From: an uncultured virus (IMG/VR IMGVR_UViG_3300009528_000001)
Taxonomy: Duplodnaviria > Heunggongvirae > Uroviricota > Caudoviricetes
IMG/VR virus record: IMGVR_UViG_3300009528_000001
Length of the DNA: 20,000 bases
Strand: one strand, 5' to 3'
The notes under the pieces were generated by a model, which saw only the letters and a list, made by a program, of their open reading frames with translations, ran no database searches and was not told where the DNA came from. Below, one piece after another: positions 5,337 through 20,000 of this stretch. How positions within the stretch are numbered: position 1 is the first letter of the stretch; the number at the start of each line of letters is the position of its first letter. Both the position numbers and the translations under genes were made by a program.

Positions 5337-5405
5337 CCGGGACCGGGGGGATTCTTGCGGAAATTGTGTAAGATTTACTTTTTGCTTACGGAATTCTATT
5401 ATCCC

Positions 5406-5594
5406 TCAAGAAATAAACACAATATCATTTGTTGAAACTTCGTATATTTGCCCATCTTTACTTTCTACAAGAGCAAATTTTTCTAGTCCATGTTCTTGGT
5501 CACCGCATTGAGCCCATTCGTGAAACAATCCATCAGCATAGGATCGATTTAATACAGTACAGTATCTAACTTTTCTTAAATCACTTTTTTTCAT
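5406..5594 (-). CDS. Small phage hypothetical protein
   Basis: 62 aa; ATGA overlap with the ATPase stop; GGAGGGGGG RBS; GLFHEWAQ..FALVESKDGQI pattern. Confidence 0.75.
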   Translation of the reverse strand: MKKSDLRKVRYCTVLNRSYADGLFHEWAQCGDQEHGLEKFALVESKDGQIYEVSTNDIVFIS

Positions 5595-7066
5595 GACTTC
5601 CCCCCCTCCCCGTAAACCCCCTGTTCTTTGAATATCTCATCCAATACCGAAAGACTTTCTTCTTCCATCTCCGCAGCAAGAATCCTTTCAATGGGTTTTT
5701 CCATGCGATCATTAAGCAATTCCAGGAGCTTGGGCTTTTGTAATGCATCTACTTCAAATAGCCAAGTCTTCTTTATTTTGTTTCTGATCACTTCGATATC
5801 TATTTTTTGTGGCTCCTTATTCTTTTCAATGCTCTTTAAATGGTCGATAATTTCATTACCCTGCTTTTTTGTCAGGTCTTTCATGCTTTTAAGGCTCAAT
5901 AGTTTAACAATACCCGCCGACTTTGCCCTGACAACGTCATGATCAGTTATCCCCTCAGTGATCTTGTAAAGGGCATGGATGGCTTTAATCTGGTCAGCAC
6001 TTATGAGGGGGTCTATGATCCTTTTAATGGTTTCTAGGCCATTCTGGAGGTCAATAAGATTCATGTTCTCAACAGCAGTCCATGAACCGGTTTTGAAAAC
6101 ATGTTTTATTATTCTTGCTTTTTCTGTTTTGTCCTTTGCGGTTGTGGAAGGATACTTCTCAACCAAACATGCCATTATCTCTTCAAGAGCAATTTTTTTA
6201 TCCTTTTGTTCAATCTGCCAATCGGGACGGCCTTGGTGGTCAAATCTACCTTCAGAGTTGCGATCAGTATTTATTCCCAAATGTTTCCCGCCGATATTAA
6301 GGGCCACGAAATGCGGTTCAAAAGATTTAAAAGTGGGATAATCAAAAGACTGTCCATTAATAAGATCAAAACGATCTTTCATGACATGGCATCGATGAAT
6401 CCATTGACTACCTTCTTTCGGTTTAAATGTTTGCCGTGCTGCCCTGGTTTTTAATTTGCTGATTTCTTCTTCATTGGCCGAAACGCGCTCCATATCTAAT
6501 ACAAGCGAAGGCTCAAACCCGAATTCGTTTTCAACCTTCATTTTTACACCGGTCTTGATGAGGTCTTTGTTCCCTCGTTCATCGAAAGTGTAATCATATT
6601 CAAACCCGGCACGCCCGCAGACAATTATATGTAGCCTGGAATTGACAAACAAATCTGTATATTTATGCCATTCTTTTTTGATGATCGCCCAATCTTGAAA
6701 TTGAAGCCGTCCGTTTCTTTTTAATTTCTCGTCATAAGATTCACATAAATCTCTCCAGACATGAGTTATGGAATCTATTATCAATACTTTTATCTTGTTT
6801 GTTTGGCATTCTTCAATTGTAGTCAATAAATCCGTAAAAGACCTGCTTTTGATGTTTAATAATTCTATCCCCGCTTTTTTAAATTTGGCGATAAGAAAGT
6901 CTGAGCCTGTTTCTGTGTCGAAAAAAGCTACTTGTTTCGTTTTCTCAAGTTCACATATCCCGATGGCTATTTCTGCCGCTGTAAAAGATTTTCCGGCACC
7001 AGAAAAACCAAGAATTCCCACTTTTCCATATGCCTGTTCAAGCGTTGCTTTTTTTAATAATGCCAT
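5591..7066 (-). CDS. Phage P-loop ATPase (AAA_24/Sak4-like RecA-fold recombination protein) with C-terminal helical extension
   Basis: Walker A GFSGAGKS, FFDTETGS, Walker B VLIIDSITHVW; AAGGAG RBS. C-terminal ISADQIKAIHAL..SMKDLTKKQGNEIID resembles tails of phage single-strand annealing proteins. Confidence 0.85.
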   Translation of the reverse strand: MALLKKATLEQAYGKVGILGFSGAGKSFTAAEIAIGICELEKTKQVAFFDTETGSDFLIAKFKKAGIELLNIKSRSFTDLLTTIEECQTNKIKVLIIDSITHVWRDLCESYDEKLKRNGRLQFQDWAIIKKEWHKYTDLFVNSRLHIIVCGRAGFEYDYTFDERGNKDLIKTGVKMKVENEFGFEPSLVLDMERVSANEEEISKLKTRAARQTFKPKEGSQWIHRCHVMKDRFDLINGQSFDYPTFKSFEPHFVALNIGGKHLGINTDRNSEGRFDHQGRPDWQIEQKDKKIALEEIMACLVEKYPSTTAKDKTEKARIIKHVFKTGSWTAVENMNLIDLQNGLETIKRIIDPLISADQIKAIHALYKITEGITDHDVVRAKSAGIVKLLSLKSMKDLTKKQGNEIIDHLKSIEKNKEPQKIDIEVIRNKIKKTWLFEVDALQKPKLLELLNDRMEKPIERILAAEMEEESLSVLDEIFKEQGVYGEGGKS

Positions 7067-7099
7067 AACATCTCCTTTATTTTGATTCCTGGCGGGTGC

Positions 7100-7525: not shown

Positions 7526-7526
7526 G

Positions 7527-7688: not shown

Positions 7689-7703
7689 TAAATAATCCTG
7701 TGG

Positions 7704-8102
7704 TTATTCGCATTTAATGGCATAAACCGGCGTTTCTTTGGTGGAGACTTGGACTATTTCGCATGTTGACCCCTCCACCAATGCGGTTATAACTATGGAC
7801 ACATCACCCCTGTACACCTCCCAATTTAGCCCTGTTTGTATTGGGCTGATTGTGCCTCCTTTTTCTTTCTGGTGAAACCCATTAGCTGCGAGTTTTGTAA
7901 GCACACTTGACATCCCCTTCATTGGTGAACCTACTGAAACGCTGCACCAATGCGTGAGGAAAGATCCGTGTACTCTAATGTGTCCAAAGGTATAATTGTA
8001 ATTTTCCAGAAGCGATGCGGCTAATTCAAGCGAAGGTTTATGTTTTTGGATACAAAAAATATTTTCTCGTAAGTCCAGTATTTCCTTTTCAATGCTGTTC
8101 AT
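7704..8102 (-). CDS. Hypothetical protein
   Basis: 132-aa ORF with AAGGA RBS. Confidence 0.7.
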   Translation of the reverse strand: MNSIEKEILDLRENIFCIQKHKPSLELAASLLENYNYTFGHIRVHGSFLTHWCSVSVGSPMKGMSSVLTKLAANGFHQKEKGGTISPIQTGLNWEVYRGDVSIVITALVEGSTCEIVQVSTKETPVYAIKCE

Positions 8103-8104
8103 TT

Positions 8105-8170
8105 TTATTCCTTTATTTTATTGTAGTATTCGTCAAGTTCCTTGTCATGGATGTAGCCTGGTTTTGGCAT
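8105..8170 (-). pseudogene. 21-codon fragment paralogous to the N-terminus of 7527..7688
   Basis: MPKPGYIHDKELDEYYNKIKE vs MPGYIYDPDLNEHH; shared DNA CCAGGCTACAT. Confidence 0.5.
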
Positions 8171-8180
8171 TATTCCATCC

Positions 8181-8450
8181 CTAAAGGAGCCTTTTGATTG
8201 TTTTTGTAATCTGTGACTTGACACCACTCTTATCCATGAGAGAATCACCTTTGTATGCGTCGTTTATCCATCTGTAGATTGCATTGCTTATTTCCCTTGC
8301 CTTGGTGAGCCTGGCTTTGTTGTAAGTTTCTAACGCAGAGGATTGTTTGCCATAATTACATTCCTCATAAAAACCATATACACATGTTTCTGTTTTATCA
8401 TAACAACGACAAGGATATTCTTCATCTTGAAAAAAACACGGTTTATCCAT
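8181..8450 (-). CDS. Cys-rich hypothetical protein (start revised to MDKPC)
   Basis: AGGGG RBS just before the ATG at 8450; abuts the upstream gene's stop. Confidence 0.65.
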   Translation of the reverse strand: MDKPCFFQDEEYPCRCYDKTETCVYGFYEECNYGKQSSALETYNKARLTKAREISNAIYRWINDAYKGDSLMDKSGVKSQITKTIKRLL

Positions 8451-8454
8451 CTTA

Positions 8455-8649
8455 TCATTCCCCTGTCTCGTCTTGTATCTCAAGAGCAGCGGGGATTTTC
8501 GCAAAAAGGCGGAAATCGTATGACATGACAAGCTCCCCGACCGCCTCTTCTTTATTGAAAGAGGAACATGCCGGAATACTGGTTCCGGGAACCGAGACGA
8601 TGTAAATGTCCTCGGCCAGATCGTTTCCTTTTGTTATTTTTATTTTCAT
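8455..8649 (-). CDS. Hypothetical protein
   Basis: 64-aa ORF with GAGGG RBS. Confidence 0.65.
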   Translation of the reverse strand: MKIKITKGNDLAEDIYIVSVPGTSIPACSSFNKEEAVGELVMSYDFRLFAKIPAALEIQDETGE

Positions 8650-8889
8650 GTTTCCCTCACCAGCAAAAAAACCAATCCAAAAGAGCCCCTACAAAAAGCC
8701 AGAATAAAAGCTTAAGTGCAACGTACCAAGTACCTGATCAATAAAATATTTCATAATTTTCCATGGTTTATCCTTTCATTTTATGCACCAGGATAATAAG
8801 GTTCAACCCAGTTAGGTATAAAATCAGTGAATTTAGCTCCCCATACCTAAACAGCCTTGATCTGCTTAGGAATTGATAGCTAGGATTTT

Positions 8890-9108
8890 TTATAACACCA
8901 CCTGCTCCCCCGTCCTCTTTTCTACAATGAGTATATTTATGGCAATTTGAGTTATTGTCCATATTTCCACAACAATGCTAATAATTGCCGCTTTCCACCA
9001 AGGTACTTGTGCGAATGTAGCTATACAAGAAATTGTTATTATAAATAAAACATTCCGCAGTCTTGAATTGCGCTGTTCTTTTTTATTTAGCTTGGATTTT
9101 TGTCTCAT
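8890..9108 (-). CDS. Small membrane protein (two hydrophobic segments)
   Basis: Basic N-terminus, then VLFIITISCIATFA and WWKAAIISIVVEIWTITQIAINILIV; AGGAGGGG RBS. Confidence 0.7.
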   Translation of the reverse strand: MRQKSKLNKKEQRNSRLRNVLFIITISCIATFAQVPWWKAAIISIVVEIWTITQIAINILIVEKRTGEQVVL

Positions 9109-9156
9109 CTTCCCCTCCTGTTAATTTCCTCACAATCCTACCAATCTATAAAAAGC

Positions 9157-9909
9157 TTAACCCAATTCGTCAATCTTTCTTTTTAGGTCTTTTTTCTTTT
9201 TTTCTCTTTCTTGTTCTTTGTGCTTGTTGTACTGCTTTATATATTTATTATCCAACGTAATTTCGTGTTTTTTTGCTTCTCTCATGGCATATTCTCCCCG
9301 GTCATTATTAAACAAATCCTCCAACTTCTCCTTGAAGAATTCCAACGCCTCTTCCTTTGACGCAAAAGGCGTTCCCTGCCAATAAGAATCATTAATCTTT
9401 ACTAATAAAACAGCCGCCCTATTACTCCCAGATTCAAGCCTTAAATCAAGCGTTGATTTATAAATATTGTCAAAAGAATGTATTGATGCACAATACTGAT
9501 TGTAAGTAACAACGAAAGCAATTTTATCGGTAAAATAATCCGTCAATAAAGAAGGATTGCTGATAAATGACCCAACTTTTTTTATGGCGCGAGCAATTAC
9601 CATGTCATCATTATTCAGCTCGTTCTTGACGAGCCTTAACTCTTTTACTAAGTCCATTAACTCGTTGGTTAGTTTTCGTCTTCTTGATTTTTGCTCGAAT
9701 ATTTCCTTTTTTAAGCTAGCGATCTCCGTATGATATGATTGCACTGGAGGCATGTCCAATACTTCTTTCGCTGAGATAACTATGATATTTTCGTAATAAC
9801 AAGAGCATTCACCATCCTCACAATATAATAGGGGCCTAACGACCAATAAACCACTCGTTGTTTCATGCTCTACTGTTATTTCCCGCCCGTCTTTGAGATA
9901 TTTTTTCAT
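9157..9909 (-). CDS. Hypothetical coiled-coil protein
   Basis: 250-aa ORF with GGAGGGG RBS. Confidence 0.75.
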   Translation of the reverse strand: MKKYLKDGREITVEHETTSGLLVVRPLLYCEDGECSCYYENIIVISAKEVLDMPPVQSYHTEIASLKKEIFEQKSRRRKLTNELMDLVKELRLVKNELNNDDMVIARAIKKVGSFISNPSLLTDYFTDKIAFVVTYNQYCASIHSFDNIYKSTLDLRLESGSNRAAVLLVKINDSYWQGTPFASKEEALEFFKEKLEDLFNNDRGEYAMREAKKHEITLDNKYIKQYNKHKEQEREKKKKDLKRKIDELG

Positions 9910-10023
9910 CTTCCCCTCCGGTTAAGTTCCGTTCCATTGACACTCCACGTCTGCCCACTGACGGGGCGGAGATTGAGGGTTAATCGCCGTTATACGCCTT
10001 TTCCAAATTCTCGACCGGAAGAT

Positions 10024-10320
10024 TTACAAACTCCCTTCCTCCTCTGGGATAAACCGTATTCTTTGAAGCGAACAATCAATCATGATTATTTTGTGTCCAT
10101 TATCGCCCATTCGGGTACTAAGACCAAAACCAGTTTCTGTCCCCTCCCTTCCCTTCACAACTTCATCATAAATTATCCGGGTTAGATATTGCTCGTCATT
10201 CCATCGCCATCTCTTTGCAAGGGCTCTTTGAACCCGCCCGGCTAATTCATATCCGCCCCAATGTGTGTAAATCCAAACACCTGCAGTATCACTATTCTTT
10301 ATTACGACATTCGCCCTTAG
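10024..10320 (-). pseudogene. Start-less reading frame of a phage-type protein (RANVVIK..VWIYTHWGGYELA..RWNDEQYLTRIIYDE..ETGFGLS..DNGH)
   Basis: 98 open codons preceded by an in-frame TAA (10321-10323), with no ATG/GTG/TTG near the 5' end. Overlaps the 3' end of 10292..10654 in another frame. Confidence 0.65.
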
Positions 10321-10654
10321 TTAATCTAAATTCTTTAAGGGCGGCTTTAAAACCGATCAATTCTATAGAAGAAAGAAAATTAATGAATTCTGAATCAGGA
10401 TCAAACCATTCTCCATGAATCCTTCTGTCTTTGATCATTTCATGTAATATTTCTTCCTCTTCTTCAAACCCCTCAAAAGCTATCAATAGTTTTAATTTAT
10501 CGGGAGAACTAGATTGAATAGCCTTTATTCTTGCCTTCATTCGGGTTGTGCGCCCTATCTTAATCCTGTGAGTCATTTCACCTAAGAGCACGTAAATAAA
10601 CGATTTTCCTTTAGGTTTTATTCTCATTTTATTGGTCAATCTTGGTATTTTCAC
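10292..10654 (-). CDS. GIY-YIG superfamily protein, T5orf172/MUG113-type
   Basis: FIYVL..RIKIGRT..KARIKAIQSSSP..L..E..LHE...RIHGEWF matches the T5orf172 pattern. Confidence 0.85.
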   Translation of the reverse strand: MKIPRLTNKMRIKPKGKSFIYVLLGEMTHRIKIGRTTRMKARIKAIQSSSPDKLKLLIAFEGFEEEEEILHEMIKDRRIHGEWFDPDSEFINFLSSIELIGFKAALKEFRLTKGECRNKE

Positions 10655-10681
10655 AATGGTTTAATTCCCAATCACAAACTT

Positions 10682-10710
10682 ACTCTACCAAAAACAATTC
10701 ATTTTGTCAA
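10682..10710 (-). promoter_or_regulatory. Leftward sigma70-type promoter
   Basis: Minus strand TTGACA (10710-10705), 17 bp, TAGAGT (10687-10682), with TGn extended -10. Confidence 0.7.
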
Positions 10711-10725
10711 ATATTATTTTAAACA

Positions 10726-10754
10726 TTGACAAGATAAATAATAAATGGTATAAC
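10726..10754 (+). promoter_or_regulatory. Rightward sigma70-type promoter
   Basis: TTGACA (10726-10731), 17 bp, TATAAC (10749-10754), with TGn extended -10; AAGGAGG RBS and ATG at 10783 follow. Confidence 0.75.
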
Positions 10755-10782
10755 TTAAGAAATTAACTTAAAGGAGGGTAAG

Positions 10783-10971
10783 ATGGCGCTTAAACATGAT
10801 GTGAACGATTTTAAGACAATAATAGTAAGAGATGTCCCGTTGTGGCTAGATTATGTTGTCGAGCAAAGAATGAGGGATGAAAATTTCAAGGGAAATAAGA
10901 ATGACTTCATGCTTGAAATGATTCATAAAGCATGTGATGGCACTGAAGTCTACCAGAAGATGAAGAAATAA
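10783..10971 (+). CDS. Probable ribbon-helix-helix (Arc/FitA-like) regulator
   Basis: 62 aa; KTIIVRDVP strand followed by two helices (LWLDYVVEQRM, NKNDFMLEMIHKA); first gene after the divergent promoters. Confidence 0.6.
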   Translation: MALKHDVNDFKTIIVRDVPLWLDYVVEQRMRDENFKGNKNDFMLEMIHKACDGTEVYQKMKK

Positions 10972-11198
10972 TGGAGGTAATTTTAGGGTCATGGGAAACC
11001 GATATTATGAAACAAACAATAACAGTCTGCGATCACTGCCTAATGGCAAGCTGTTGGCAAGGTATTTTTATGTGCAATGAAAGTCTGGAGGCGGGAACGG
11101 TTGAAAAGACAGTGGAAGAACTTAAGGAATTAGCACTTGAGTCTGAAAGCTTCTGGGATATTGATCCTGATACGATGGTTGCCCGGTCATGGAGTTGA
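10971..11198 (+). CDS. Cys-containing phage hypothetical protein
   Basis: TITVCDHCLMASCWQGIFMC motif; start may be the internal MKQT. Confidence 0.65.
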   Translation: MEVILGSWETDIMKQTITVCDHCLMASCWQGIFMCNESLEAGTVEKTVEELKELALESESFWDIDPDTMVARSWS

Positions 11199-11200
11199 TA

Positions 11201-11380
11201 ATGAGTGAAATTATTCACAAAACAGATGACCGACATGCCGATGATTGTAAATGCCCAGAATGCTTTGATGGTAAATGTACAAACACAGAACCGGTATTTT
11301 CAACCCCCAAGGGTGCCGTTTATCGTTCTGAGTGCAATGACGATTGTCAAAATTGTGAATACTGGGTGGAGGTAAAATGA
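11201..11380 (+). CDS. Small Cys-rich hypothetical protein
   Basis: GGAG RBS before the ATG at 11201; CxCxxC and CxxxCxxC motifs; ATGA overlap with the next gene. Confidence 0.6.
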   Translation: MSEIIHKTDDRHADDCKCPECFDGKCTNTEPVFSTPKGAVYRSECNDDCQNCEYWVEVK

Positions 11381-11643
11381 AAATAAAACAATTAGAACCT
11401 GGGAAGCTTAAACAATTCATAGACGAACTTACCGAAGCTTGGGATCATAATTATGGGACAATGAGTTATTCTGGCGCAATTAATGGCGAGCCGGAGGAAT
11501 GGTCACTAGAACTGTCAACTGGCGGATGGTCTCACAATGAGGACATTATAGAAGATTTACAGAAGTACAACTTCTTCTGGTTTATCTATTGGCAGAAATC
11601 CGAGCGAGGTGGTCATTACTGTTTCGGTCCGGGGGAGAAATGA
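11377..11643 (+). CDS. Phage hypothetical protein
   Basis: GGAGG RBS; LELSTGGWSHNEDII..FW..YW..SERGGHY motif. Confidence 0.75.
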   Translation: MKIKQLEPGKLKQFIDELTEAWDHNYGTMSYSGAINGEPEEWSLELSTGGWSHNEDIIEDLQKYNFFWFIYWQKSERGGHYCFGPGEK

Positions 11644-12215
11644 AAACCATCAGCATCCAGCGCCCCTGGCCGGAGGCCATTTTCCGGGAAGAGAAAACCA
11701 TCGAATGCCGGAGTTGGAAGACTGATTATCGCGGGACTCTCGCCATTCACGTTTCGCAAAAAGCTTGGTGTGATAATTTGTTTGACGAAAGTTATTATCA
11801 AGTAAAGGGCAAGATTGTCGGAACGGTTGAGCTCATAAATATTATTGAGTTTTTTGGACAAAATACTTTCCATTACTTTAATGATATGCATTTGATCCCC
11901 ATGGGAAACTGGACAAAATACGGATGGGTTCTTGAAAACCCGGTAAGATTTGCAACTCCGATACCCTATAGGGGGAAGTTGGGGTTGTGGGAATCACCCC
12001 GGCATGCTGATTTGTGCAAACATGCCAGTGCTTTTGAACGCGGTTTACTGGACTCTACTCATTGTTGTGGAGTTGATGTAGTGTCAGATGATGGCAAAAC
12101 GTGGTTTGAGTCTATCGACGATGTTAGGATGATAAACGCCGATGGGGGCGGTTGCGATGATTACGAGAGGTGGGAGAAGAATGGACACGACAGAACTAAA
12201 TATAAAGATGTGTGA
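11640..12215 (+). CDS. ASCH domain protein (start revised to MKTISIQRPW)
   Basis: KTISIQRPW..I....KTIECRSWKTDYRGTLAIH...GKIVGTVEL...W.LENP.....PIPYRGKLGLW is the canonical ASCH pattern; ATGA overlap. Confidence 0.9.
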   Translation: MKTISIQRPWPEAIFREEKTIECRSWKTDYRGTLAIHVSQKAWCDNLFDESYYQVKGKIVGTVELINIIEFFGQNTFHYFNDMHLIPMGNWTKYGWVLENPVRFATPIPYRGKLGLWESPRHADLCKHASAFERGLLDSTHCCGVDVVSDDGKTWFESIDDVRMINADGGGCDDYERWEKNGHDRTKYKDV

Positions 12216-12615
12216 GAAGGCGGTTGAGGTTCAGGAATTGTGGAAACCTGTAGTCGGTGATTATGTTGCATTGTCACGATTTCCAGGACAAGGGTTTCTC
12301 TTGGAAATAAAAACAAAAGGACATGAAGCTCGGCCGCTTTATCAAGTAGAACATGGGTTTAATAATCAATACAGATCGGAATTGATTTGGCTCCCAAGAC
12401 AGGATCAGTTGCAGGATATGTTAAAGGAAAAACTTCCTATTTTTTCAGACAAGGGCTTGACGAAGCTTCTAAATATCTTTACCGATAGCGTTTTGTTAAA
12501 GACATTAGAGATTGGAATAATAAGGAAAATGTCTTTCGAACAATTATGGTTAGCCTTTGTCATGGAAGAGAAGTTCAATCTCACCTGGAACGGAGAGGAT
12601 TGGGAGGCGAGATGA
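12181..12615 (+). CDS. Phage hypothetical protein (start revised to MDTTEL)
   Basis: GGAG RBS; IKMCEKA..Q, WLPRQDQLQDM and SFEQLWLAFVMEEK motifs. Confidence 0.75.
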   Translation: MDTTELNIKMCEKAVEVQELWKPVVGDYVALSRFPGQGFLLEIKTKGHEARPLYQVEHGFNNQYRSELIWLPRQDQLQDMLKEKLPIFSDKGLTKLLNIFTDSVLLKTLEIGIIRKMSFEQLWLAFVMEEKFNLTWNGEDWEAR

Positions 12616-12680
12616 CAAGAGAAGAGGCAAAAGAAGTATTTGGAATGAGGGTTTCCCGCTTGAGGACTGTGAGCTTGTAG
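12612..12680 (+). pseudogene. 22-codon fragment resembling the N-terminus of an XRE HTH protein
   Basis: MTREEAKEVFGMRVSRLRTVSL*; GGAGG RBS and ATGA coupling; stops 4 nt before the first TTGACA repeat. Confidence 0.4.
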
Positions 12681-12710
12681 ATATTTGACACCCCTTTTGA
12701 AAGGAAGATT

Positions 12711-13031
12711 ATGACTAGAGGCGAGAAAATAAAACAACGGCGGCTTGATTTAAAGCTGAGTCAACGACAATTGGGGAAAATGACAGGTATAACAGCCGCA
12801 TTCATGTGCCAAATCGAGAAAGGGAACCGGTCTTTTTCTATTGATATTCTAATAAAATTATCAAAAGCCCTTAACTTGCCCCCTGAAAGAATAATTTCTT
12901 TTGAATTGCCAGAAGAAAAGCCCCAACTTGACAGGATTGAAGAGAAGTTGAAAACCATATTAGATTTTCTTGAACAAAACTACCCTAACTCTATTTCAAA
13001 TTATGACATTCAATTAAAGAAAGAAACTTGA
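12711..13031 (+). CDS. XRE-family HTH transcriptional regulator
   Basis: GEKIKQRRLDLKLSQRQLGKMTGITAAFMCQIEKGNRSFSIDILIKLSKAL; stop TGA lies inside repeat copy 2. Confidence 0.9.
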   Translation: MTRGEKIKQRRLDLKLSQRQLGKMTGITAAFMCQIEKGNRSFSIDILIKLSKALNLPPERIISFELPEEKPQLDRIEEKLKTILDFLEQNYPNSISNYDIQLKKET

Positions 13032-13066
13032 CACCCCTTTTTTTACGAGATAGAAAGGATAATACA

Positions 13067-13191
13067 ATGAGACCCTATCGACCAATATCACCAGGAGAAA
13101 TTCTCAAGGAAGAGCTTGATGCCCGACATTGGGATGAAAAAATACTTGGGGCAATCATTAATAGGTCTGTTCAATATGTAATAAATATTAA
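13067..13191 (+). pseudogene. 5' part of a HigA-like (XRE) gene, cut by the IS
   Basis: Manual translation MRPYRPISPGEILKEELDARHWDEKILGAIINRSVQYVINI matches the HigA-type PGEILKEE start; runs into the IS terminal repeat at 13192. Confidence 0.75.
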
Positions 13192-13277
13192 CGGAATTAT
13201 CCCCTAACGTACAGTTTTTTGTTGATTTAGGTTGATATACTTGATACCCTCTTTGTTAATTATTATAAGGAGGTATC

Positions 13278-13772
13278 ATGGCGGATAAATTGTTTGATAT
13301 TGTATTTAGTTTCATAATTAATAGGTGGAGTATGGTTCAATCAGTGCCATTAGAGATTTATTTGATCTACTCATTATTGTTCTATTTTATATTTAATTGG
13401 CGTTATAGGGATATTTTCAAAACGAAAGATGAGACTATAAGCGCATTAAAAAACCAAATAAAGCACGCAGGTAAGAACACGCAAGAATCGCCTGACAATA
13501 CAACAAAAAGCTTGAAGAAACAATTAATAGAGTTATCAGATGCAATAGTCGTATTTGTTTCTAAATGCGAAGAAGATGATATGCTAATCCATGATGTATT
13601 AGAAGATTATCGAGTTCATTATAATAACAACGTAGTGCTACTCTATGAACAAGCGAAAGAACAAGGATATTCAGATGATATCCTGGATAATATTTATAGA
13701 CGGCCGCCGCTCCTTAGTTATATGAGTGCCATTGCAAAGAAATTAAGAGTAGTGTCTGATAAAATGCCTTAA
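13278..13772 (+). CDS. IS passenger gene: hypothetical protein with an N-terminal transmembrane segment
   Basis: AAGGAGG RBS; hydrophobic IYLIYSLLFYFIFNW; its stop overlaps the transposase stop (TTAA 13769-13772); lies inside the TIRs. Confidence 0.8.
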   Translation: MADKLFDIVFSFIINRWSMVQSVPLEIYLIYSLLFYFIFNWRYRDIFKTKDETISALKNQIKHAGKNTQESPDNTTKSLKKQLIELSDAIVVFVSKCEEDDMLIHDVLEDYRVHYNNNVVLLYEQAKEQGYSDDILDNIYRRPPLLSYMSAIAKKLRVVSDKMP

Positions 13773-14659
13773 CCTAAAATTGCCTGGCTTAAAACCAAAT
13801 CGAACATATTGGAATCAGATCTATTGTTCCAGCGAAAACAAAACTCGTTAATGTAATTTTGCAAATACTTAACCGACACATGATAATAAATACCGTAAAT
13901 ACCGCGTTTTAATGTAGCCCAGAAAGATTCAATATTGTTTGTATGAATATCGCCATTTGAATATTCAACTGTATGATCTATCCTCAAATGTGCATGGTTA
14001 GTCGAGGAAAACTTGTTGTATCCCTTGAATTCATCAGTAACTATTATGGAATTTTCTTTACTGTGTTTGTCCAAAATAGAAAGTAATTGAATGCCAGTTA
14101 ATTTCTTTCCTAATCCGTCTGGAACAGCTACTTCAGCATGGACTTTCTTATTGTCTCTGTCGGCCACTCCTACAACTGGAGATTTTTTAGTACCCCTGCC
14201 TCTTTTATTGTTTTCATCATCGTTATTGTTCTTTTTAGGTTTCCCGCCAATATATGTTTCATCCATTTCAAGGACTGTTTCATTAAATTTATTGTCTCGT
14301 TCATTTCCCATAGATATTCTTATTTGCTTGAGCATTCTCCAGGCTGTCTTGTATGTAACACCAATCTCTCGTTGTAATTGTAGGCCAGATATGCCTTTCT
14401 TGCCATTCAAGAAAAGATGGATAGCATACATCCATTTTCGGAGATCAGTTGATGTTTTCTCAAAGATGGTGTCTTTGAAAATAGAAAAATTATTCTTACA
14501 ATCATTACAAGCAAAAACTTTTGGATATTTATGTCTTTGATAAACTTTAAGCGATCCGCAATGATTACAAGCAACTTCTTTGCCATAACGGATAGCAATA
14601 AAATGATCTATAACTTTTTTTTCTGTTGGAAACTTATTTAAAAACTCAATGAATGTCAT
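13769..14659 (-). CDS. IS1595-family (ISXO2-like) DDE transposase, 296 aa (start revised to MTFIEF)
   Basis: Zinc ribbon CNHC..CNDC, HTH ISGLQLQREIGVTYKTAWRM, catalytic EMDETYIGG / TDEF / HTNNIESFW, YINEFCFRWN; AAAAGGAG RBS. Confidence 0.95.
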   Translation of the reverse strand: MTFIEFLNKFPTEKKVIDHFIAIRYGKEVACNHCGSLKVYQRHKYPKVFACNDCKNNFSIFKDTIFEKTSTDLRKWMYAIHLFLNGKKGISGLQLQREIGVTYKTAWRMLKQIRISMGNERDNKFNETVLEMDETYIGGKPKKNNNDDENNKRGRGTKKSPVVGVADRDNKKVHAEVAVPDGLGKKLTGIQLLSILDKHSKENSIIVTDEFKGYNKFSSTNHAHLRIDHTVEYSNGDIHTNNIESFWATLKRGIYGIYYHVSVKYLQNYINEFCFRWNNRSDSNMFDLVLSQAILG

Positions 14660-14694
14660 GGTACGCTCCTTTTGTGTCGTTAACTTATACTTTA

Positions 14695-14722
14695 AGTATA
14701 CCATGATTTTACTGTATGTCAA
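14695..14722 (-). promoter_or_regulatory. Transposase promoter overlapping the terminal inverted repeat
   Basis: Minus strand TTGACA (14722-14717), 16 bp, TATACT (14700-14695), with TGn extended -10. Confidence 0.7.
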
Positions 14723-14734
14723 GGGATAATTCCG

Positions 14735-14893
14735 AAATATAATCCAGAAAGATATGATTATGGGATAATAAAAGAAAGCTTTGTTTGTGGTTGTTCATCT
14801 TTTTCTAGTGCGAAAGATGGCAAGTTTACAATCAATACCTTCTGCACTGAATGTACTAAAATGATAGAGTTTCCCAAAAATAACCCGGCTTGA
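14735..14893 (+). pseudogene. Start-less 3' gene fragment right of the IS (CxC...CxxC), ending in repeat copy 3
   Basis: Open frame KYNPERYDYGIIKESFVCGCSSFSSAKDGKFTINTFCTECTKMIEFPKNNPA*, whose TGA is part of TTGACA at 14890. Confidence 0.6.
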
Positions 14894-14914
14894 CACCCCT
14901 TTGAAAGGAAGATT

Positions 14915-15160
14915 ATGAATAATTTAAGTTTCCAAGGTTTAACGGAAGATGGTTTTAATAGAAGATGTCGGGATTTATATTCAGACAACAGACTTGTAAT
15001 GATTTACAAAGATGGTGATGCCTGGTGTGCCTTGATTGGAGAGAATATACAAGAAGGTCATGCCGGATTTGGGAACACCGTTGAAGATGCCTTAATTGAC
15101 CTTGCTAATGGTTTAAAAGCAAACTGTTCGGATTATATAAATAATGAGGGGGAATTATAA
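14915..15160 (+). CDS. Small phage protein, possibly HicB-like fold
   Basis: IYKDGDAWCALIGENIQEGHAGFGNTVEDALIDL; RBS directly follows repeat copy 3. Confidence 0.75.
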   Translation: MNNLSFQGLTEDGFNRRCRDLYSDNRLVMIYKDGDAWCALIGENIQEGHAGFGNTVEDALIDLANGLKANCSDYINNEGEL

Positions 15161-15336
15161 TGGTTGTCGTAATCGGGCAGCGGTCCCCAAAAAACAAAAT
15201 ATTATCTTGTAATTATTGTAAATGGTCAAACATTCAGCCAAGACCTGATTGGTGTACAAGGGAACACAATGGATGTGGAAGATCGGCAGGTATAAATGAT
15301 AATAGATTCTTTGAAGAAGCGGCGAGAAACCCTTGA
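15160..15336 (+). CDS. Small 58-aa Cys-rich protein (not in the ORF track)
   Basis: MVVVIGQRSPKNKILSCNYCKWSNIQPRPDWCTREHNGCGRSAGINDNRFFEEAARNP*; GAGGGGG RBS; TAATG coupling; stop lies inside repeat copy 4. Confidence 0.65.
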   Translation: MVVVIGQRSPKNKILSCNYCKWSNIQPRPDWCTREHNGCGRSAGINDNRFFEEAARNP

Positions 15337-15361
15337 CACCCCCTTTTTTTGAGGATGAAAA

Positions 15362-15784
15362 ATGGATCACGATGAATTAGTCTTGCGAGCCGGTATATGG
15401 CTCAAGAATAGCATGCGGTGCCGTCCTGTGTTGTTAGAATGCTCAACGATGTATGGCATAGAAATACCTGATGCCCTTGGTTTTGTAACCGGCACTGGCT
15501 CGTCAATCTTGATAGAATGCAAAGCCAGTAAGGGTGATTTTAGTTCAGATAGAAGTAAAATATTCAGAAAAAATCCGGAAATAGGAATGGGTGTGAAAAG
15601 ATATTTCATGGTGGATAAAGACTTTATAATCCCTGGATCATTGCCGGATAACTGGGGATTGTTGAGGGTCTGGCCGAAACAAGTAAGGATCATAAAACAA
15701 TCTGGTGGATTCAATGCCGACAGGAATGCAGAAATTAAATTATTATTGTCGCATATCTGGAAGTTGGGGAATAACCCGGCTTGA
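15362..15784 (+). CDS. PD-(D/E)xK nuclease-fold protein (MmcB-like)
   Basis: HDELV..., EIPDALGF, ILIECKASKGDF.SD, GMGVKRYF motifs; stop lies inside repeat copy 5. Confidence 0.75.
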   Translation: MDHDELVLRAGIWLKNSMRCRPVLLECSTMYGIEIPDALGFVTGTGSSILIECKASKGDFSSDRSKIFRKNPEIGMGVKRYFMVDKDFIIPGSLPDNWGLLRVWPKQVRIIKQSGGFNADRNAEIKLLLSHIWKLGNNPA

Positions 15785-15807
15785 CACCCCCCTTTTGAAA
15801 GGAAGAC

Positions 15808-16149
15808 ATGGAACCTAAAAATATTAGACGCAGGCCTTCAATTACACATTTTTCCCGTATTATGGAAAAAGTTCTAAGAAACAATGATCATAAACAAGGA
15901 TGGTCTGATCTTCGGTTCGACATCCTTCTCACTCGCATCAGGCAGGAAACTGACGAACTGCTATATGCTCACTTCCGGAATAAGCTAGATACATTTGAAG
16001 AAAAACCATTAACCGAAAAACAAGTTGTTGAATTTGTAGCTGAATGTGCCGACATTGCCAACTTCGCAATGATGCTTTCTGAAAACATGATTCGTCGTTT
16101 TTCACAGAAAGACACACTAGAACGATATGATTTTGACTTTTTCTTTTAA
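15808..16149 (+). CDS. MazG-like all-alpha NTP pyrophosphatase-fold protein
   Basis: RIRQETDEL ... ECADIANFAMML gives the ExxE...ExxD metal-binding pattern. Confidence 0.7.
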   Translation: MEPKNIRRRPSITHFSRIMEKVLRNNDHKQGWSDLRFDILLTRIRQETDELLYAHFRNKLDTFEEKPLTEKQVVEFVAECADIANFAMMLSENMIRRFSQKDTLERYDFDFFF

Positions 16150-16213
16150 CCGTATTTTCTGAGGGGCGAGGGCTTAATTGGCACTTGGCACCCCTTTTTT
16201 TGTGGAGAAAAAA

Positions 16214-16621
16214 ATGGCAGGACTAAAACCCCAAGGACATTCTTCTGGTGGCAGTGATCTATTAGAGAGAGAATCTTTGTCGGATACTATTGCAAGGCGT
16301 TTGGATTTAGTTAAAGAGCTGCATCTCATTGAGGGCAAATTGTCTGTAGTAAATTCATTAATTAAGAGGGGCGAAATTCACCATAATTGTGACTTGCAAA
16401 AAAACATTCAACAAAGACAAATATTAATATTAGAGAAAAACAATATTATTGATTTATTAATTACTTTCAAGGATGTTATAAATAAGAAAAAACAGTCCGT
16501 AGTGGATGGGCCGGGAAGTAAAGATAAGATATTATTACATATAGAGGAAGAGCTAAATAGCATAAAATGCCAATTGCATGACTTAATAGATATTATTAGA
16601 TTTGCTATCGAGAAAGAATAA
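16214..16621 (+). CDS. Hypothetical coiled-coil protein (start revised to MAGLKP)
   Basis: GGAG RBS directly after repeat copy 6; ATG at 16214. Confidence 0.7.
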   Translation: MAGLKPQGHSSGGSDLLERESLSDTIARRLDLVKELHLIEGKLSVVNSLIKRGEIHHNCDLQKNIQQRQILILEKNNIIDLLITFKDVINKKKQSVVDGPGSKDKILLHIEEELNSIKCQLHDLIDIIRFAIEKE

Positions 16622-16628
16622 ATGCGGC

Positions 16629-16656
16629 TTGACACCCCTTTTTTTTACGCTATAAT
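16629..16656 (+). promoter_or_regulatory. Consensus sigma70 promoter (repeat copy 7)
   Basis: TTGACA (16629-16634), CCCCTTTTTTTTACGC (16 bp), TATAAT (16651-16656), upstream of the Cro-like and replication genes. Confidence 0.85.
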
Positions 16657-16699
16657 GTAGAAAACTAAGCAAAGAGTTGAACTAAATTGGGGGTTTATT

Positions 16700-16873
16700 T
16701 TGATAAAAGAGGAAATAATTGCTATTCGCAAACGTTTACAATTGTCACAAGAGAGGTTCGGTCATTTACTGGGGGTATCCAGGTCAACGGTTATTAATTG
16801 GGAGAAGGGTAGTAATAAGCCTTCATTTCTGGCGCTGGAGAAACTCAATCGTGAAAAAGAACTCCTCGGATAA
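16700..16873 (+). CDS. Cro-like XRE HTH protein, 57 aa (not in the ORF track)
   Basis: TTG start after GGGGG; MIKEEIIAIRKRLQLSQERFGHLLGVSRSTVINWEKGSNKPSFLALEKLNREKELLG*. Confidence 0.9.
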   Translation: MIKEEIIAIRKRLQLSQERFGHLLGVSRSTVINWEKGSNKPSFLALEKLNREKELLG

Positions 16874-17720
16874 TCTGCCAGCGTTCCAATTCTATCCGAA
16901 TGATTGGCTCGGCGATATGAATCTAAGAATGTGTTCGGTTGGTACTAGGGGTGTCTGGATTGACTTATTATGCCTCATGCACAAGTCAAAAAAATATGGT
17001 TTTCTTGTCCATAAAGTAGACGGAAAGTGGGCCAATATGAGTCCAAAAACAATCCAAAAACTTACCGGAATGACCACTAAACGGATAATTATTGGCATCC
17101 AAGAGTTATCCAAAAACGACGTTATAAAACATGATGCCCATGGTTTGATATATTCAAAGAGAATGGTTAAAGATCATGCACTTAGAGTGATACGGAAAGA
17201 GGTTGGAAAGCTTGGTGGTAATCCTGCTTTGGTTAACCAAAGCCCCAACCAAACGGGCAACCAAAAGACACCCCCTTCATCTTCATCTTCATCTTCTCTT
17301 TCCTCTTCAACTTCAAAAGAACCTAAACCCCCTATAGTCCCCCAAGGGGGGAATGGGATGGTGAGAGAAAGATTCGATAAATTCATAAACCTTTACCCGA
17401 ATGCTGTTGCCAAAGACAAAGCTTGGGTAGCCTGGCAGCAGCTATTCGTTAAAGGGTTTGCTGGGAGAAGGTGCACAACTAAATTTCTTTCCACTTTAAC
17501 CGATAAACTCTTTAATGAAATAATCGAAGGGGTCGAAGCCCAGACAAAAGAACGTAAGTGGAAAAAAGAAGCCAAGGTCTGGATGGCACCATGGACTCAC
17601 CCGGCCACTTGGCTCCGTGCGAAGCGCTGGGAGGATCGAGTTGAAGAAAAGCCAGAAGAAACCGTGAGGAAATTTGAATTTTTGGAGGGGGGGAATGAAA
17701 ATAAACAAGACAGATATTAA
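16851..17720 (+). CDS. Phage replication initiator/replisome organizer (YdaU/DUF1376-like N-terminus); start revised to GTG 16851
   Basis: PAFQFYPNDWLGD..LR.CS...RGVWIDLLCLMH N-terminus; low-complexity linker; FDKFINLYP..KDKAW and HPATWLRAKRWED C-terminal motifs. The ORF-track N-terminal extension is the shadow of the Cro-like gene. Confidence 0.85.
   Translation: MKKNSSDNLPAFQFYPNDWLGDMNLRMCSVGTRGVWIDLLCLMHKSKKYGFLVHKVDGKWANMSPKTIQKLTGMTTKRIIIGIQELSKNDVIKHDAHGLIYSKRMVKDHALRVIRKEVGKLGGNPALVNQSPNQTGNQKTPPSSSSSSSLSSSTSKEPKPPIVPQGGNGMVRERFDKFINLYPNAVAKDKAWVAWQQLFVKGFAGRRCTTKFLSTLTDKLFNEIIEGVEAQTKERKWKKEAKVWMAPWTHPATWLRAKRWEDRVEEKPEETVRKFEFLEGGNENKQDRY
17226..17315. other. Candidate replication origin inside the initiator gene
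   Basis: Perfect 18-bp palindrome GCTTTGGTTAACCAAAGC (17226-17243); AACCAAA at 17235, 17247 and 17259 (12-bp period); then a (CTTCAT)n pyrimidine-rich tract. Confidence 0.55.
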
Positions 17721-18044
17721 AGTTTTAAAACATTGGGGGAAAAACCTAAAAGAAGCTAAAAGATTAATTTCTGTTAAATGGGTTGTGGGAAACAAGGATG
17801 ATTCAAATTATGACCATTCATACTCATCATGCTCATATTGCCGTGTTTATAGGAAAAAAAATGCTTAGGATGTCCTATAAAAGTTTTTACGGGTGTTGGA
17901 TATTGCCAAAACACACCTTATTCCGGGATTGATTATTATTTTGAGCGCAATAGCAATTGTACAGTAGGAAAAGAATTATATGACAGAACAAAAGCAGAAT
18001 TCAAATTTCTCACTAAAATCATCAAGAAGAAAAATAGAAAATGA
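17695..18044 (+). pseudogene. Cys-rich phage protein split by a frameshift in an A8 tract (17854-17861)
   Basis: Frame 1 reads ...SCSYCRVYRKK. The -1 frame continues KCLGCPIKVFTGVGYCQNTPY...KAEFKFLTKIIKKKNRK* and ends in an ATGA overlap with 18041. Confidence 0.75.
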
Positions 18045-18667
18045 CCCAAGAATCCGCAGCAACCCTATTAAAAAATTTTTCCGAGCCCTATCTATCGCCA
18101 TACCGCTCAGAGTTGCCAGAGTGGGACGCTATGCGGTGGGTTAAGCTTTTTATGGAGTTGTCGATACCGTATAAACAGGCTGGGACTATTCTGACCGAAT
18201 ATTTATCAAATAACCCCCCACGATACAAGGAAGATGGTTCGGCTTGTGGAGTAATGCCAGATATTGATCAAATAAAATCTTTTTTATTGGGGATGGGCAA
18301 GGCAACGACTAATCCTGATTACTGCCCTTGTTGCGCCGGGTTCGGGTGGATCTTCTTTGAATCTTTGAATGGGGTTGTCCGTTGTGACTGTTCATCTCCT
18401 GAAATTGACATGGGGAAATATAATTATAGCGTCAAGACATTGAGTGATATCTACCCGAATTACGGAGAGGCAAAATGCGACTCTTTCCAGTGCGCCCCCA
18501 GGAAAGATAGCCCGTGCCCACTGGGATCACAGTTTTATAATGCCAAGAAAATTGAGTTCATGGATCGGGAAAGACAGAAGACTGGATGGAAACTCGGACT
18601 AACCTTCCATAAAAGCGGGTACGTAAAAGGGGTTATGGATTCGCTAAACGATATTGAGGGGGGGTGA
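18041..18667 (+). CDS. Hypothetical protein with zinc finger, possibly a replication accessory/helicase-loader-like protein
   Basis: YCPCCAGFGWIFF..VVRCDC motif; lies downstream of the initiator; no P-loop seen. Confidence 0.65.
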   Translation: MTQESAATLLKNFSEPYLSPYRSELPEWDAMRWVKLFMELSIPYKQAGTILTEYLSNNPPRYKEDGSACGVMPDIDQIKSFLLGMGKATTNPDYCPCCAGFGWIFFESLNGVVRCDCSSPEIDMGKYNYSVKTLSDIYPNYGEAKCDSFQCAPRKDSPCPLGSQFYNAKKIEFMDRERQKTGWKLGLTFHKSGYVKGVMDSLNDIEGG

Positions 18668-18903
18668 GTATAGATATGAGTAGCAAAATAATTTATAGAG
18701 TTGATATTACAAAATTTTGGAACGGTAGCGTTAGGAATGATTGGTATGAATTGTTTACTACAAAAAAGAAAGCGGAGACATATTCTGATAAGTATCAAGA
18801 ACATACCGAAACTTGGAGTTGTAGAGGTAGTCTTGATGGGGATGATGACGCTTCGGCTAAAGTGACGTATAGAAAAGAGATTTCAGAAGTCACAGTTTTA
18901 TAA
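18664..18903 (+). CDS. Hypothetical protein
   Basis: 79-aa ORF with GTGA overlap and G-rich RBS. Confidence 0.65.
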   Translation: MSIDMSSKIIYRVDITKFWNGSVRNDWYELFTTKKKAETYSDKYQEHTETWSCRGSLDGDDDASAKVTYRKEISEVTVL

Positions 18904-19023
18904 AAAAGAGCTTTTAAAAGAAAACAAGATCCTGCCTACCAACGAGGATTGAAAATGTTAAAGAAGAGCGGGTATGTGAAAGGGGTTATGGATAAACTTG
19001 GGGATATGGGGGAGGGGAAATGA
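18904..19023 (+). pseudogene. Orphan 3' end paralogous to the C-terminus of 18041..18667
   Basis: RKQDPAYQRGLKMLKKSGYVKGVMDKLGDMGEGK* vs RQKTGWKLGLTFHKSGYVKGVMDSLNDIEGG*. Confidence 0.7.
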
Positions 19024-19280
19024 GTATTCATGGCATATGCTTTGATACCGGACAAAGTGGAAATTGTGGAATGGATTGTGAACAGTTCCTTGATGGAGAT
19101 TGTGAATGTCCGGGAGAATTTATTGACTGGTTAGAGGTAATGACGGAAGAAGAGCGACAATTTCAGATAAATGACTATGATTTATTGAATTTGTATCCTA
19201 GCGTGTTTGATTTCCTGTATACAGAAAGCATAGAGGACAGAGTGAAGAGAATTAGCGAAAGTATTAAAAAGGGGAGGTGA
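19020..19280 (+). CDS. Cys-rich hypothetical protein
   Basis: CFDTGQSGNCGMDCEQFLDGDCEC; GGAGGGG RBS. Confidence 0.7.
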   Translation: MSIHGICFDTGQSGNCGMDCEQFLDGDCECPGEFIDWLEVMTEEERQFQINDYDLLNLYPSVFDFLYTESIEDRVKRISESIKKGR

Positions 19281-19283
19281 AGG

Positions 19284-19592
19284 ATGACACAAGAATACAG
19301 TCCCAAAAACGATGAATATAAAATAGGACGTCGTTACAAAGTTAACGGAAAAACAATGCGTTTAACTGGTTTTTGTAGGTGTAGTCACTGGAAAGAACCT
19401 TGTAAACAATGCAATAGTTATTTGTTGTGGAATGGTGTCCTGGAGGCAGATTTCCGGACTGATTGTGGATATTCAAACGGAGAAACTATTTTTAAAGAAA
19501 TTAGTGATATGCAGGGAGTTTCATGTGAAACAATAGAAGATCGCGTATTGCGAATACAACTACAAATTAAAAAGGAGGTGAGTAAAACATGA
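19284..19592 (+). CDS. Cys-rich hypothetical protein
   Basis: GGAGGTG RBS; CRC..CKQC motif. Confidence 0.7.
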   Translation: MTQEYSPKNDEYKIGRRYKVNGKTMRLTGFCRCSHWKEPCKQCNSYLLWNGVLEADFRTDCGYSNGETIFKEISDMQGVSCETIEDRVLRIQLQIKKEVSKT

Positions 19593-19783
19593 CGCCCACT
19601 GAAATTATGGAAAAAGCCCAGGCAAACATCGAGAAGGGCTTAAATGACCATGCTGTATCAGAAATCGAAGAATTGCTAAAAGAACTGTGCGCAGCAAGAA
19701 TAGTTGTCAAGAATGTGGAGGCAAGGATTGTCTCGGTCAAGAAAGACTTAACTGAAAAGCTAACCGATATCGCAGCAGTATAA
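19589..19783 (+). CDS. Small coiled-coil hypothetical protein
   Basis: AAGGAGGTG RBS; ATGA overlap. Confidence 0.7.
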   Translation: MTPTEIMEKAQANIEKGLNDHAVSEIEELLKELCAARIVVKNVEARIVSVKKDLTEKLTDIAAV

Positions 19784-19925
19784 ATACGTATAACCACCAT
19801 CTAGTTGAGCGCTGATCATAATCCCAAGACTTCCATTGATGCAATAGATTAGTTGGTGGTTGTGAGTGTTTAGTAGCATTAGGCAATTGTATATTATGGG
19901 CTGGTTTGAGGATAACCTAATGGCT
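19781..19925 (+). other. Long intergenic stem-loop pair (candidate structured RNA)
   Basis: 19781-19806 pairs with 19847-19872 (24/26 positions, 5 G-U). Second stem is AGCATTAGG (19875-19883) with CCTAATGGCT (19916-19925). Confidence 0.55.
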
Positions 19926-20000
19926 CACATTGAGGATGTCGAGGGATGAAAATGAAAGGGAATGTATGGAAAACTCGTATAAAATAATACTGGATTTATG

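Follow-up and report, generated by a model that had tools for sequence, protein, structure and literature searches.

Integron arrays comprise attC sites, imperfect palindromes folding as single-stranded hairpins, together with the IntI tyrosine recombinase and the Pc promoter. Lambdoid phages carry boundary or linker sequences (Susskind-Botstein modules; HK97, HK022 and HK620), short conserved gene-boundary sequences favouring module exchange that are defined by comparing different phages, and morons carry their own promoter and terminator. Morons are also discussed in PMC2839356 (Arbiol et al. 2010), which for T4-type myoviruses describes promoter early stem-loop elements (PeSLs), strong sigma-70 promoters combined with stem-loops, generally of the form GGGG...CCCC, that can overlap the -35 box. 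The same source and PMC4122927 (Comeau et al. 2014) describe PeSLs as clustering in hyperplastic regions of orphan genes (ORFans) and as recombining with one another, with genes deleted, inserted or replaced, mini-circles formed and no dedicated recombinase known. Start-associated sequences (SAS/ESAS, here SAS) of Cluster K mycobacteriophages, according to PMC3203893 (Pope et al. 2011), are 13 bp long, contain a Shine-Dalgarno core and lie 3-7 bp from the start codon. The present analysis concerns a repeat of the form TTGRCA-C4-6-T3-8, a -35 box followed by C and T runs, which punctuates an array of small genes in a 20,000-nucleotide (nt) window of DNA from an uncultured Caudoviricetes virus (IMG/VR IMGVR_UViG_3300009528_000001). 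The repeats are interpreted as promoter-derived linkers that join successive cistrons and offer short homology through which genes could be shuffled, a PeSL variant without the -10 box and without the hairpin; this reading is given slightly better than an even chance of being correct. On this reading it does not represent a novel class of gene-capture system.

Bases 1-20000 of a 32,678-base virus record, read on the reverse strand, make up the window; CheckV puts the completeness of the record at about 49%. The full phage genome is probably about 67 kb long, because protein look-ups found these genes on two contigs measuring 67,238 and 67,272 bases; the recombinase and motif searches, which cover the 32.7-kb record, therefore extend over about half of it.

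An initial annotation, made from the sequence of the window, had reported seven direct copies of the repeat, all situated at gene boundaries, with no full copy elsewhere, and these observations were reproduced. All copies lie on the plus strand, namely copy 1 at 12685..12698 (TTGACA C4 T4), copy 2 at 13028..13044 (TTGACA C4 T7, followed by ACG), copy 3 at 14890..14902 (C4 T3), copy 4 at 15333..15350 (C5 T7), copy 5 at 15781..15796 (C6 T4), copy 6 at 16185..16201 (TTGGCA C4 T7) and copy 7 at 16629..16656, where the repeat continues into a complete promoter. The 10-nt core reads TTGACACCCC in six copies and TTGGCACCCC in one, with 69 of 70 positions identical. Allowing at most one mismatch, 10 matches occur in the window against 1.82 expected, a number reached in none of 200 shuffles. 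Scanning the whole record with a regular expression returned seven sites on the plus strand and none on the minus strand, all seven within 4 kb and none outside, and the reversed control pattern gave no site in the 32,678 bases. A profile hidden Markov model built from the seven copies recovered every one of them at E <= 8e-7, the next matches having E values of 0.055 or worse. Two weaker profile matches, 7899-7919 and 8213-8244 (E 0.055-0.077), fall within genes of the minus strand and were taken as chance.

Each of the seven copies is intergenic and occupies a stop-to-start gap. In copies 2-5 the TGA of TTGACA is the stop codon of the upstream frame, as first annotated, the open reading frames (ORFs) ending at 13031, 14893, 15336 and 15784; copies 1-6 are followed by a purine-rich Shine-Dalgarno sequence and an ATG, 11-22 nt past the T run, again in agreement with the earlier description. 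From the start of TTGACA to the next ATG the distance is 25-29 nt in five of these six copies and 39 nt in copy 2. Gaps between array genes, which carry the repeat, measure 21-95 nt, and the six upstream genes of the same operon overlap one another (-1 to -74). With the insertion sequence (IS) between copies 2 and 3 left out, the repeat-to-repeat intervals amount to about 343, 319, 443, 448, 404 and 444 nt. Short-T linkers (copies 1, 3 and 5) alternate with long-T linkers (copies 2, 4, 6 and 7), 10 of the 35 possible orders keeping short-T copies non-adjacent. The idea that the linker is a three-frame stop signal was discarded, all three frames being closed in only two of the seven copies. A literature search for the 10-mer core returned only unrelated papers. 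Motif scans of IMG/VR yielded 13 one-copy loci, at least 119 loci and 7 unrelated loci, with no second array among the matches listed; of those listed for the scan with at least 119 loci, only L099 had three copies. These three TTGACA-Cn-Tn copies (L099:2914-3017), spaced by 44 nt on an unrelated contig, form a tandem and not a cassette array.

Sequence identity around the copies is organised in sharp-edged blocks, present in subsets of copies and in some cases running into neighbouring coding sequence, with similarity at chance level outside. Its extent differs by pair, from 10 nt to about 40 nt, and differences inside the blocks are confined to homopolymer lengths (C4-6, T3-8). Copies 3 and 5 share a left arm of 11 identical nt upstream (AATAACCCGGC), which codes for the C-terminal NNPA of two unrelated proteins, and copy 7 has the CGGC of this arm. 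Downstream, copies 1 and 3 are identical over 16 nt, through ATGA; their right arm, designated type a (GAAAGGAAGATTATG), is also assigned to copy 5, which matches 10 nt of it. That the repeat is homologous to the cro-rep promoter in its -35 and spacer, as claimed in the initial annotation, is borne out by copies 2 and 7, which both read CTTGACACCCC, a T7 or T8 run and ACG; of all the copies, copy 2 most resembles promoter copy 7. The outer flanks of the array are unique at both ends, to the left of the first copy and to the right of the last, where the flank is the -10. Such sharp edges are what recombination junctions or recent conversion would produce, whereas a short binding site would be expected to give graded conservation.

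Promoter elements and nucleic acid structure were evaluated for all copies. Copy 7 alone possesses a -10, as TTGACA-16-TATAAT, matching 12 of 12 consensus positions. Copy 1 attains 10 of 12, although the hexamer resembling a -10, GATTAT, coincides in part with the start codon. The earlier description of the units as promoterless cassettes of unrelated genes, each consisting of a ribosome-binding site and an ORF, thus stands, a complete promoter being found only in copy 7. RNA folds of the seven copies displayed no structure beyond that of shuffles (z-scores -0.38 to +1.86), and single-stranded DNA (ssDNA) folds of seven top-strand and two bottom-strand copies gave z-scores from -1.04 to +1.07, with minimum free energies of -0.7 to -7.6 kcal/mol. 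No terminator-like site was detected at any of the seven copies. Pairing between the C/T tract and the Shine-Dalgarno sequence is limited to a 4-bp hairpin in copies 1, 3 and 5, and an upstream run of four G is present in two of seven copies (5 and 6). The Rfam search gave no family, with a single chance match at E 0.23, and the tRNA search gave none.

In the mechanism proposed here, the seven repeats would all descend from a single short intergenic linker that shares ancestry with the -35 and C/T-rich spacer of cro-rep. Copies 1-6 would act as intercistronic junctions only, each supplying or following the stop of the upstream ORF and leading through a pyrimidine tract to a ribosome-binding site and a start codon, with copy 7 as the presumed working promoter of cro-rep. 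The cassettes would be transcribed by read-through from an upstream promoter and each translated from its own ribosome-binding site. A candidate for this promoter is the sigma-70 sequence TTGACA-17-TATAAC at 10726..10754 on the plus strand, read from the sequence with a regular expression and putatively active, which lies in a divergent gap at the head of the plus-strand operon entering the array. The linkers are proposed to act as short-homology patches because they display near-perfect identity over 14-40 nt and all share one orientation, and these identity blocks may represent both products and substrates of short-homology recombination. Recombination at the linkers would delete, duplicate, import or swap small accessory genes, mediated by host functions or possibly by an AAA_24/Sak4-like, ssDNA-annealing-type protein of the phage (491 amino acids (aa), 5591..7066, minus strand; PF13479 E 4e-15; phrog_124 'Sak4-like' E 1.5e-11; phrog_1366 E 4e-50), whose gene is the sole recombination-type gene seen in the 32.7-kb record. 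Phage annealing proteins are reported, in the portions of two studies relevant here, to recombine short and diverged sequences (PMC5499656, PMC8093625).

The initial annotation had favoured an integron-like accretion system, in which units were inserted at the promoter and the site was regenerated with each event. Nothing in the data shows either the insertion or the regeneration. Its remark that no recombinase was visible was correct and was extended from the window to the 32.7-kb record, which holds no tyrosine or serine recombinase and no reverse transcriptase; moreover, the site folds neither as RNA nor as ssDNA. The integron-like proposal is not supported by these results.

Comparison with loci encoding a related replication protein offers an analogous case. 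The comparison set consisted of 11 further loci with a related Rep, for nine of which the upstream sequence exceeds 3 kb, and one of the 11, L010 (GC 0.61, Rep 36% identical), carries its own repeat in 7-9 copies directly upstream of Rep. The L010 repeat is about 65 nt long and GGC-rich, with the core CGCAAGGCAAGGGAAGTTTT, and lies 20-45 nt before start codons. Through this repeat two IMG/VR relatives were found, giving the family L010:1400-5212, L162 and L167. Between L010 and the two relatives there is a clean repeat-to-repeat indel of one cassette, a different gene following the final repeat, the switch falling inside the repeat core, and an insertion of about 600 nt that abuts the repeat. 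Alignment ends fall within 12 nt of a repeat interval in six of 13 cases, such positions making up 9.8% of the sequence (binomial P 8e-4), although the ends are paired and not independent, four of 11 remaining without one trivial adjacent pair. Arrays before this replication gene can therefore mark exchange points, providing support for the window by analogy only. Two further Rep-related loci contain long tandem repeats with a 24-nt period, probably within coding sequence (L013:4457-4630 and 8364-8730; L014:6379-6890).

The array is bounded by two anchors, on the left an ASCH-domain protein (191 aa, 11640..12215, plus strand; PF04266 E 1.4e-4; phrog_3193 E 3e-27) and on the right the replication initiator or replisome organiser Rep (289 aa, 16851..17720, plus strand; phrog_270 and phrog_9327, E about 1e-12). 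That gene content between these anchors differs among relatives is suggested by protein-level data. Relatives of the Rep N-terminal domain with 73-81% identity occur on contigs of 67,185, 66,277, 7,651 and 48,995 bases, full-length Rep relatives with 50-58% identity on contigs of 44,552 and 17,857 bases, and ASCH relatives with 68% and 78% identity on contigs of 7,651 and 44,552 bases. ASCH and Rep relatives thus appear together on two contigs (7,651 and 44,552 bases), as judged from equal contig sizes, and neither has a homologue of cassette 5; the protein of this cassette has no homologue but itself among 5.8 billion proteins. The cassette 4 protein has cluster mates that are 88-89% identical on four contigs (61,185, 48,995, 20,537 and 2,934 bases), its C-terminus reading GNNPA here and ENKD, ENET or ENKV in the mates, with divergence beginning at the linker-encoded codons. 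At the protein level, these observations indicate that mosaicism proceeds one cassette at a time between the conserved anchors. Rep, too, is a mosaic, its two domains meeting at a PSSSSSS run. Its N-terminal domain is about 80% identical in proteins with other C-terminal domains, and conversely (proteins P0001-P0012).

Nucleotide-level relatives were sought in several collections. IMG/VR searches with Rep, the PD..ExK protein, P0004 and the ASCH alignment gave only relatives of at most 50% identity, no close relative was matched among GenBank phages, and GTDB genome contigs gave 0 matches and then one distant locus. Scanning metagenomes for the type-a linker pattern gave two matches attributed to chance, which lack both the motif and protein similarity. 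A subsurface-metagenome contig covering 10500-18500 at depth 11 shows no joints at the motif, contigs being unable to reveal rare variants.

Weighing the interpretation as linkers for short-homology exchange requires setting several observations on the opposite side. All seven copies have in common no more than a 10-nt core and the runs, and perfect identity between any two copies extends over 21 nt at most, both of which are short for homologous recombination. Close relatives are known from proteins alone, with no breakpoint mapped to the motif; the assignment of their proteins to shared contigs rests on equal sizes and not on sequence; and an array of this kind is present in only one of the 11 other Rep-related loci, that of L010, whose alignment ends are paired as described above. 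A core identical at 69 of 70 positions with variable flanks is, in addition, also expected from selection on a site bound by a protein or by RNA polymerase. This last point leads to the main alternative, that the repeat is a selected regulatory site, either a DNA site for a sigma factor or for a phage regulator such as the XRE or Cro-like proteins encoded within or beside the array, or a pyrimidine-rich RNA translation enhancer or operator immediately before each ribosome-binding site, with no role in recombination, which is regarded as possible but rather unlikely. All copies have the same orientation and begin 25-39 nt upstream of the following gene's ATG, which agrees with such a site, as does the precedent of SAS repeats, which PMC3203893 describes as likewise one-oriented, occurring only in the half of the genome without structural genes and in some cases containing the upstream stop codon. 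However, the C and T runs differ in length by 2 and 5 nt, leaving a variable distance to the ribosome-binding site; there is no conserved RNA or DNA structure (z-scores -1.04 to +1.86 overall); the site is not palindromic, unlike typical helix-turn-helix (HTH) operators; and upstream genes of the same operon lack the repeat. Perfect identity extending into two unrelated coding regions and through a start codon would also be unexpected of a regulatory site.

The linkers could otherwise be working promoters, copies 1-6 using a non-canonical -10 or another sigma factor and each cassette forming its own moron-like transcription unit. Six copies carry a perfect -35 hexamer, copy 1 reaches its 10 of 12 positions with GATTAT, and A/T-rich hexamers occur 15-18 nt downstream in all copies, yet copies 1-6 would not serve as promoters of the next gene because a transcript starting about 35 nt past the hexamer would begin inside the ORF, given that TTGACA stands 25-29 or 39 nt before the ATG, and would lose the ribosome-binding site and ATG. 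The consensus -10 of copy 7 is the only one in the array and no terminators separate the units, making this explanation highly doubtful. Scarcely any probability is attached to a dedicated integron-like capture system, with a short non-palindromic site at the cro-rep -35/spacer, a recombinase encoded elsewhere and a promoter-less site copy left by each capture. Such a system would account for co-oriented promoter-less cassettes that end at a promoter and for unique outer flanks at both array ends, and about half of the ~67 kb genome lies outside the record. Against it stand the lack of an integrase, serine recombinase or reverse transcriptase in 32.7 kb and of an attC-like fold, and the array was present in no other IMG/VR contig scanned (in one scan, among the matches listed). 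Pairwise identity ranging from 10 to about 40 nt likewise fits homology-driven exchange better than a fixed crossover point. A broader version, in which the early promoter is the capture site, whether dedicated or annealing-based, would see older copies pushed upstream as promoter-less -35 scars, turning the array into an ordered record of acquisition and a platform that resembles an integron but uses a non-palindromic site of 10-17 nt and lacks a tyrosine recombinase; it is likewise considered very improbable. Promoter-derived linkers used for short-homology exchange remain the preferred interpretation.

The array genes themselves were characterised from left to right. At the left edge, a 22-codon mini-ORF at 12612-12680 shares an ATGA overlap with the stop of a 157-aa gene and terminates 4 nt short of copy 1, possibly as the remnant of a truncated gene. 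Cassette 1 (12711..13031, plus strand) encodes an XRE-type HTH protein of 106 aa (PF01381 E 1e-10), whose stop is the TGA of copy 2 and whose 90% cluster contains this phage's own contigs only. Cassette 2 is interrupted, its 5' part (13067..13191, plus strand) giving no family match and its Cys-rich 3' part (14735..14893, plus strand; frame 0 translation) ending in NNPA at the TGA of copy 3. Cassette 3 (14915..15336, plus strand) holds two overlapping ORFs, of 81 aa (labelled 'HicB-like') and 58 aa (Cys-rich), closing at the TGA of copy 4; neither has a family match and both clusters consist of the phage's own contigs. Cassette 4 (15362..15784, plus strand) encodes a 140-aa protein with a PD..ExK motif (phrog_631 E 7.5e-30), its stop being the TGA of copy 5. 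The two remaining units, both on the plus strand, are cassette 5 (15808..16149), a 113-aa ORFan labelled 'MazG-like', and cassette 6 (16214..16621), a 135-aa helical or coiled-coil-like ORF whose cluster is again restricted to own contigs. Beyond copy 7 follows a Cro-like HTH gene of 57 aa with a TTG start (16700..16873, plus strand; PF01381 E 2e-10), which precedes Rep.

Cassette proteins were compared with one another and with known families and structures. The genes are mutually unrelated, as first annotated, the sole pair below E 0.01 being the XRE and Cro proteins, both helix-turn-helix. The PD..ExK motif is readable in the cassette 4 sequence, phrog_631 being a family of unknown function, whereas the labels HigA-like, HicB-like and MazG-like found no family support, PF01503 for the MazG-like protein reaching E 0.023, below the cut-off. 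AlphaFold models of cassette proteins were poor, with predicted local distance difference test (pLDDT) values of 31 and 57, the latter belonging to the all-helical, low-confidence model of cassette 5, and PDB sequence searches with the cassette proteins gave nothing meaningful. Clusters of six of the seven array proteins looked up, the IS passenger included, hold own contigs only. GC content at third codon positions is 0.24-0.35 in the cassettes (0.44 in cassette 4) versus 0.40-0.48 in ASCH, g12142, cro, rep and g18041.

The seven-copy array of the initial annotation was confirmed, but an IS1595-family element between copies 2 and 3 had been missed (13192..14734, minus strand). It splits the 'HigA-like' gene, so that this long interval is no large cassette, and the array region tolerates IS insertion. 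The element measures 1,543 bp and has inverted repeats of 24 nt, 88% complementary, with imperfect flanking direct repeats (AAATATTA / AAATATAA). Its transposase (296 aa, 13772-14659, minus strand) matches PF12762 at E 8e-35 and NF033547 at E 1e-58, the best plasmid relatives being 56-59% identical (Treponema, Ca. Megaera) and uninformative on the host. The passenger ORF (164 aa, 13278-13772, plus strand) has its own promoter-like site, TTGATA-17-TATAAG, at about 13240. A second promoter-like site at 14716-14743 (ATGTCA-16-TATAAT, 10 of 12 positions) spans the right end of the IS and adjoining phage DNA and faces the downstream cassettes; as read from its sequence, it could be a hybrid promoter offsetting the polarity of the insertion.

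The remaining part of the record contains genes for a tape measure protein, a major tail protein and connector proteins, a tail gene set that identifies the phage as siphovirus-type. Elsewhere in the window, repeats with a period of about 120 nt occupy positions 100-760 inside a 5'-open ORF (3-833), with recurring 10-mers at 114/354/471/594/714 and 267/504/627/747. Its protein gives weak DUF6242 and beta-propeller-like matches and is probably a repeat-containing tail or fibre protein.

If the preferred reading is true, linker-mediated cassette shuffling would not be peculiar to T4-type myoviruses, a reduced form of it existing in an unrelated siphovirus-type phage from a subsurface community. 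This reduced form would keep only the -35 box and the C/T tract, suggesting that short regulatory fragments suffice to organise a hyperplastic accessory-gene region. It would also provide a simple sequence signature for finding such regions, along with orphan genes (regulators, possible anti-defence), in metagenomic phages. The L010 family, in turn, provides a second, unrelated repeat with the same positional role before a homologous replication gene.

Set against the known systems, the array resembles an integron in having co-oriented, promoter-less, unrelated single-gene units split by a repeated site, with expression presumably driven from outside the cassette. It differs in having no IntI-type tyrosine recombinase in any ORF scanned across the 32.7-kb record, a non-palindromic site without an attC-like fold, and a complete promoter located at the downstream end of the array and facing away from it. 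With lambdoid linkers it shares short conserved sequences at gene boundaries, proposed here to favour exchange, and with morons the placement of accessory genes beside regulatory sequences; unlike morons, the cassettes have no promoter and terminator of their own. The likeness to SAS, as PMC3203893 describes them, lies in an asymmetric repeat in one orientation, found in the non-structural part of the genome just upstream of the starts of unrelated gene families, with the upstream stop codon sometimes inside the repeat. In contrast to SAS, the core is devoid of a Shine-Dalgarno sequence, its start is 25-39 nt away from the ATG, and it is followed by homopolymer spacers of variable length.

The PeSLs provide the closest comparison. 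In both cases short conserved -35-based, regulatory-type repeats, all oriented alike, separate early genes that are small, non-essential and for the most part orphans, the copies are intergenic and clustered in an ORFan region, and the linkers are proposed to support homologous exchange without a dedicated recombinase. The differences are that a strong promoter with both -35 and -10 is present in one of the seven window copies (16629), that a stable stem-loop or terminator is present at none, and that the phage is siphovirus-like and not T4-like. Because six of seven copies lack a -10 and there is no stem-loop or terminator, the window cassettes would be without insulation and dependent on read-through. 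The initial annotation had regarded the form of the repeat as not matching the PeSLs, a statement that was too strong, since the 16-mer GGCTTGACACCCCTTT of copies 3 and 7 (in copy 5 with two more C) is the -35/CCCC/T-rich core of cyanophage GGGG...CCCC elements. Conserved GGGGGC-TTGACA-CCCC-T-rich-TATAAT promoter/stem elements occur in the IMG/VR loci L020, L021, L023, L024, L027, L028, L030 and L031, and the GenBank relatives of these elements are T4-like cyanophages. With this 16-mer common to both, the window repeat looks like the right half of the cyanophage element.

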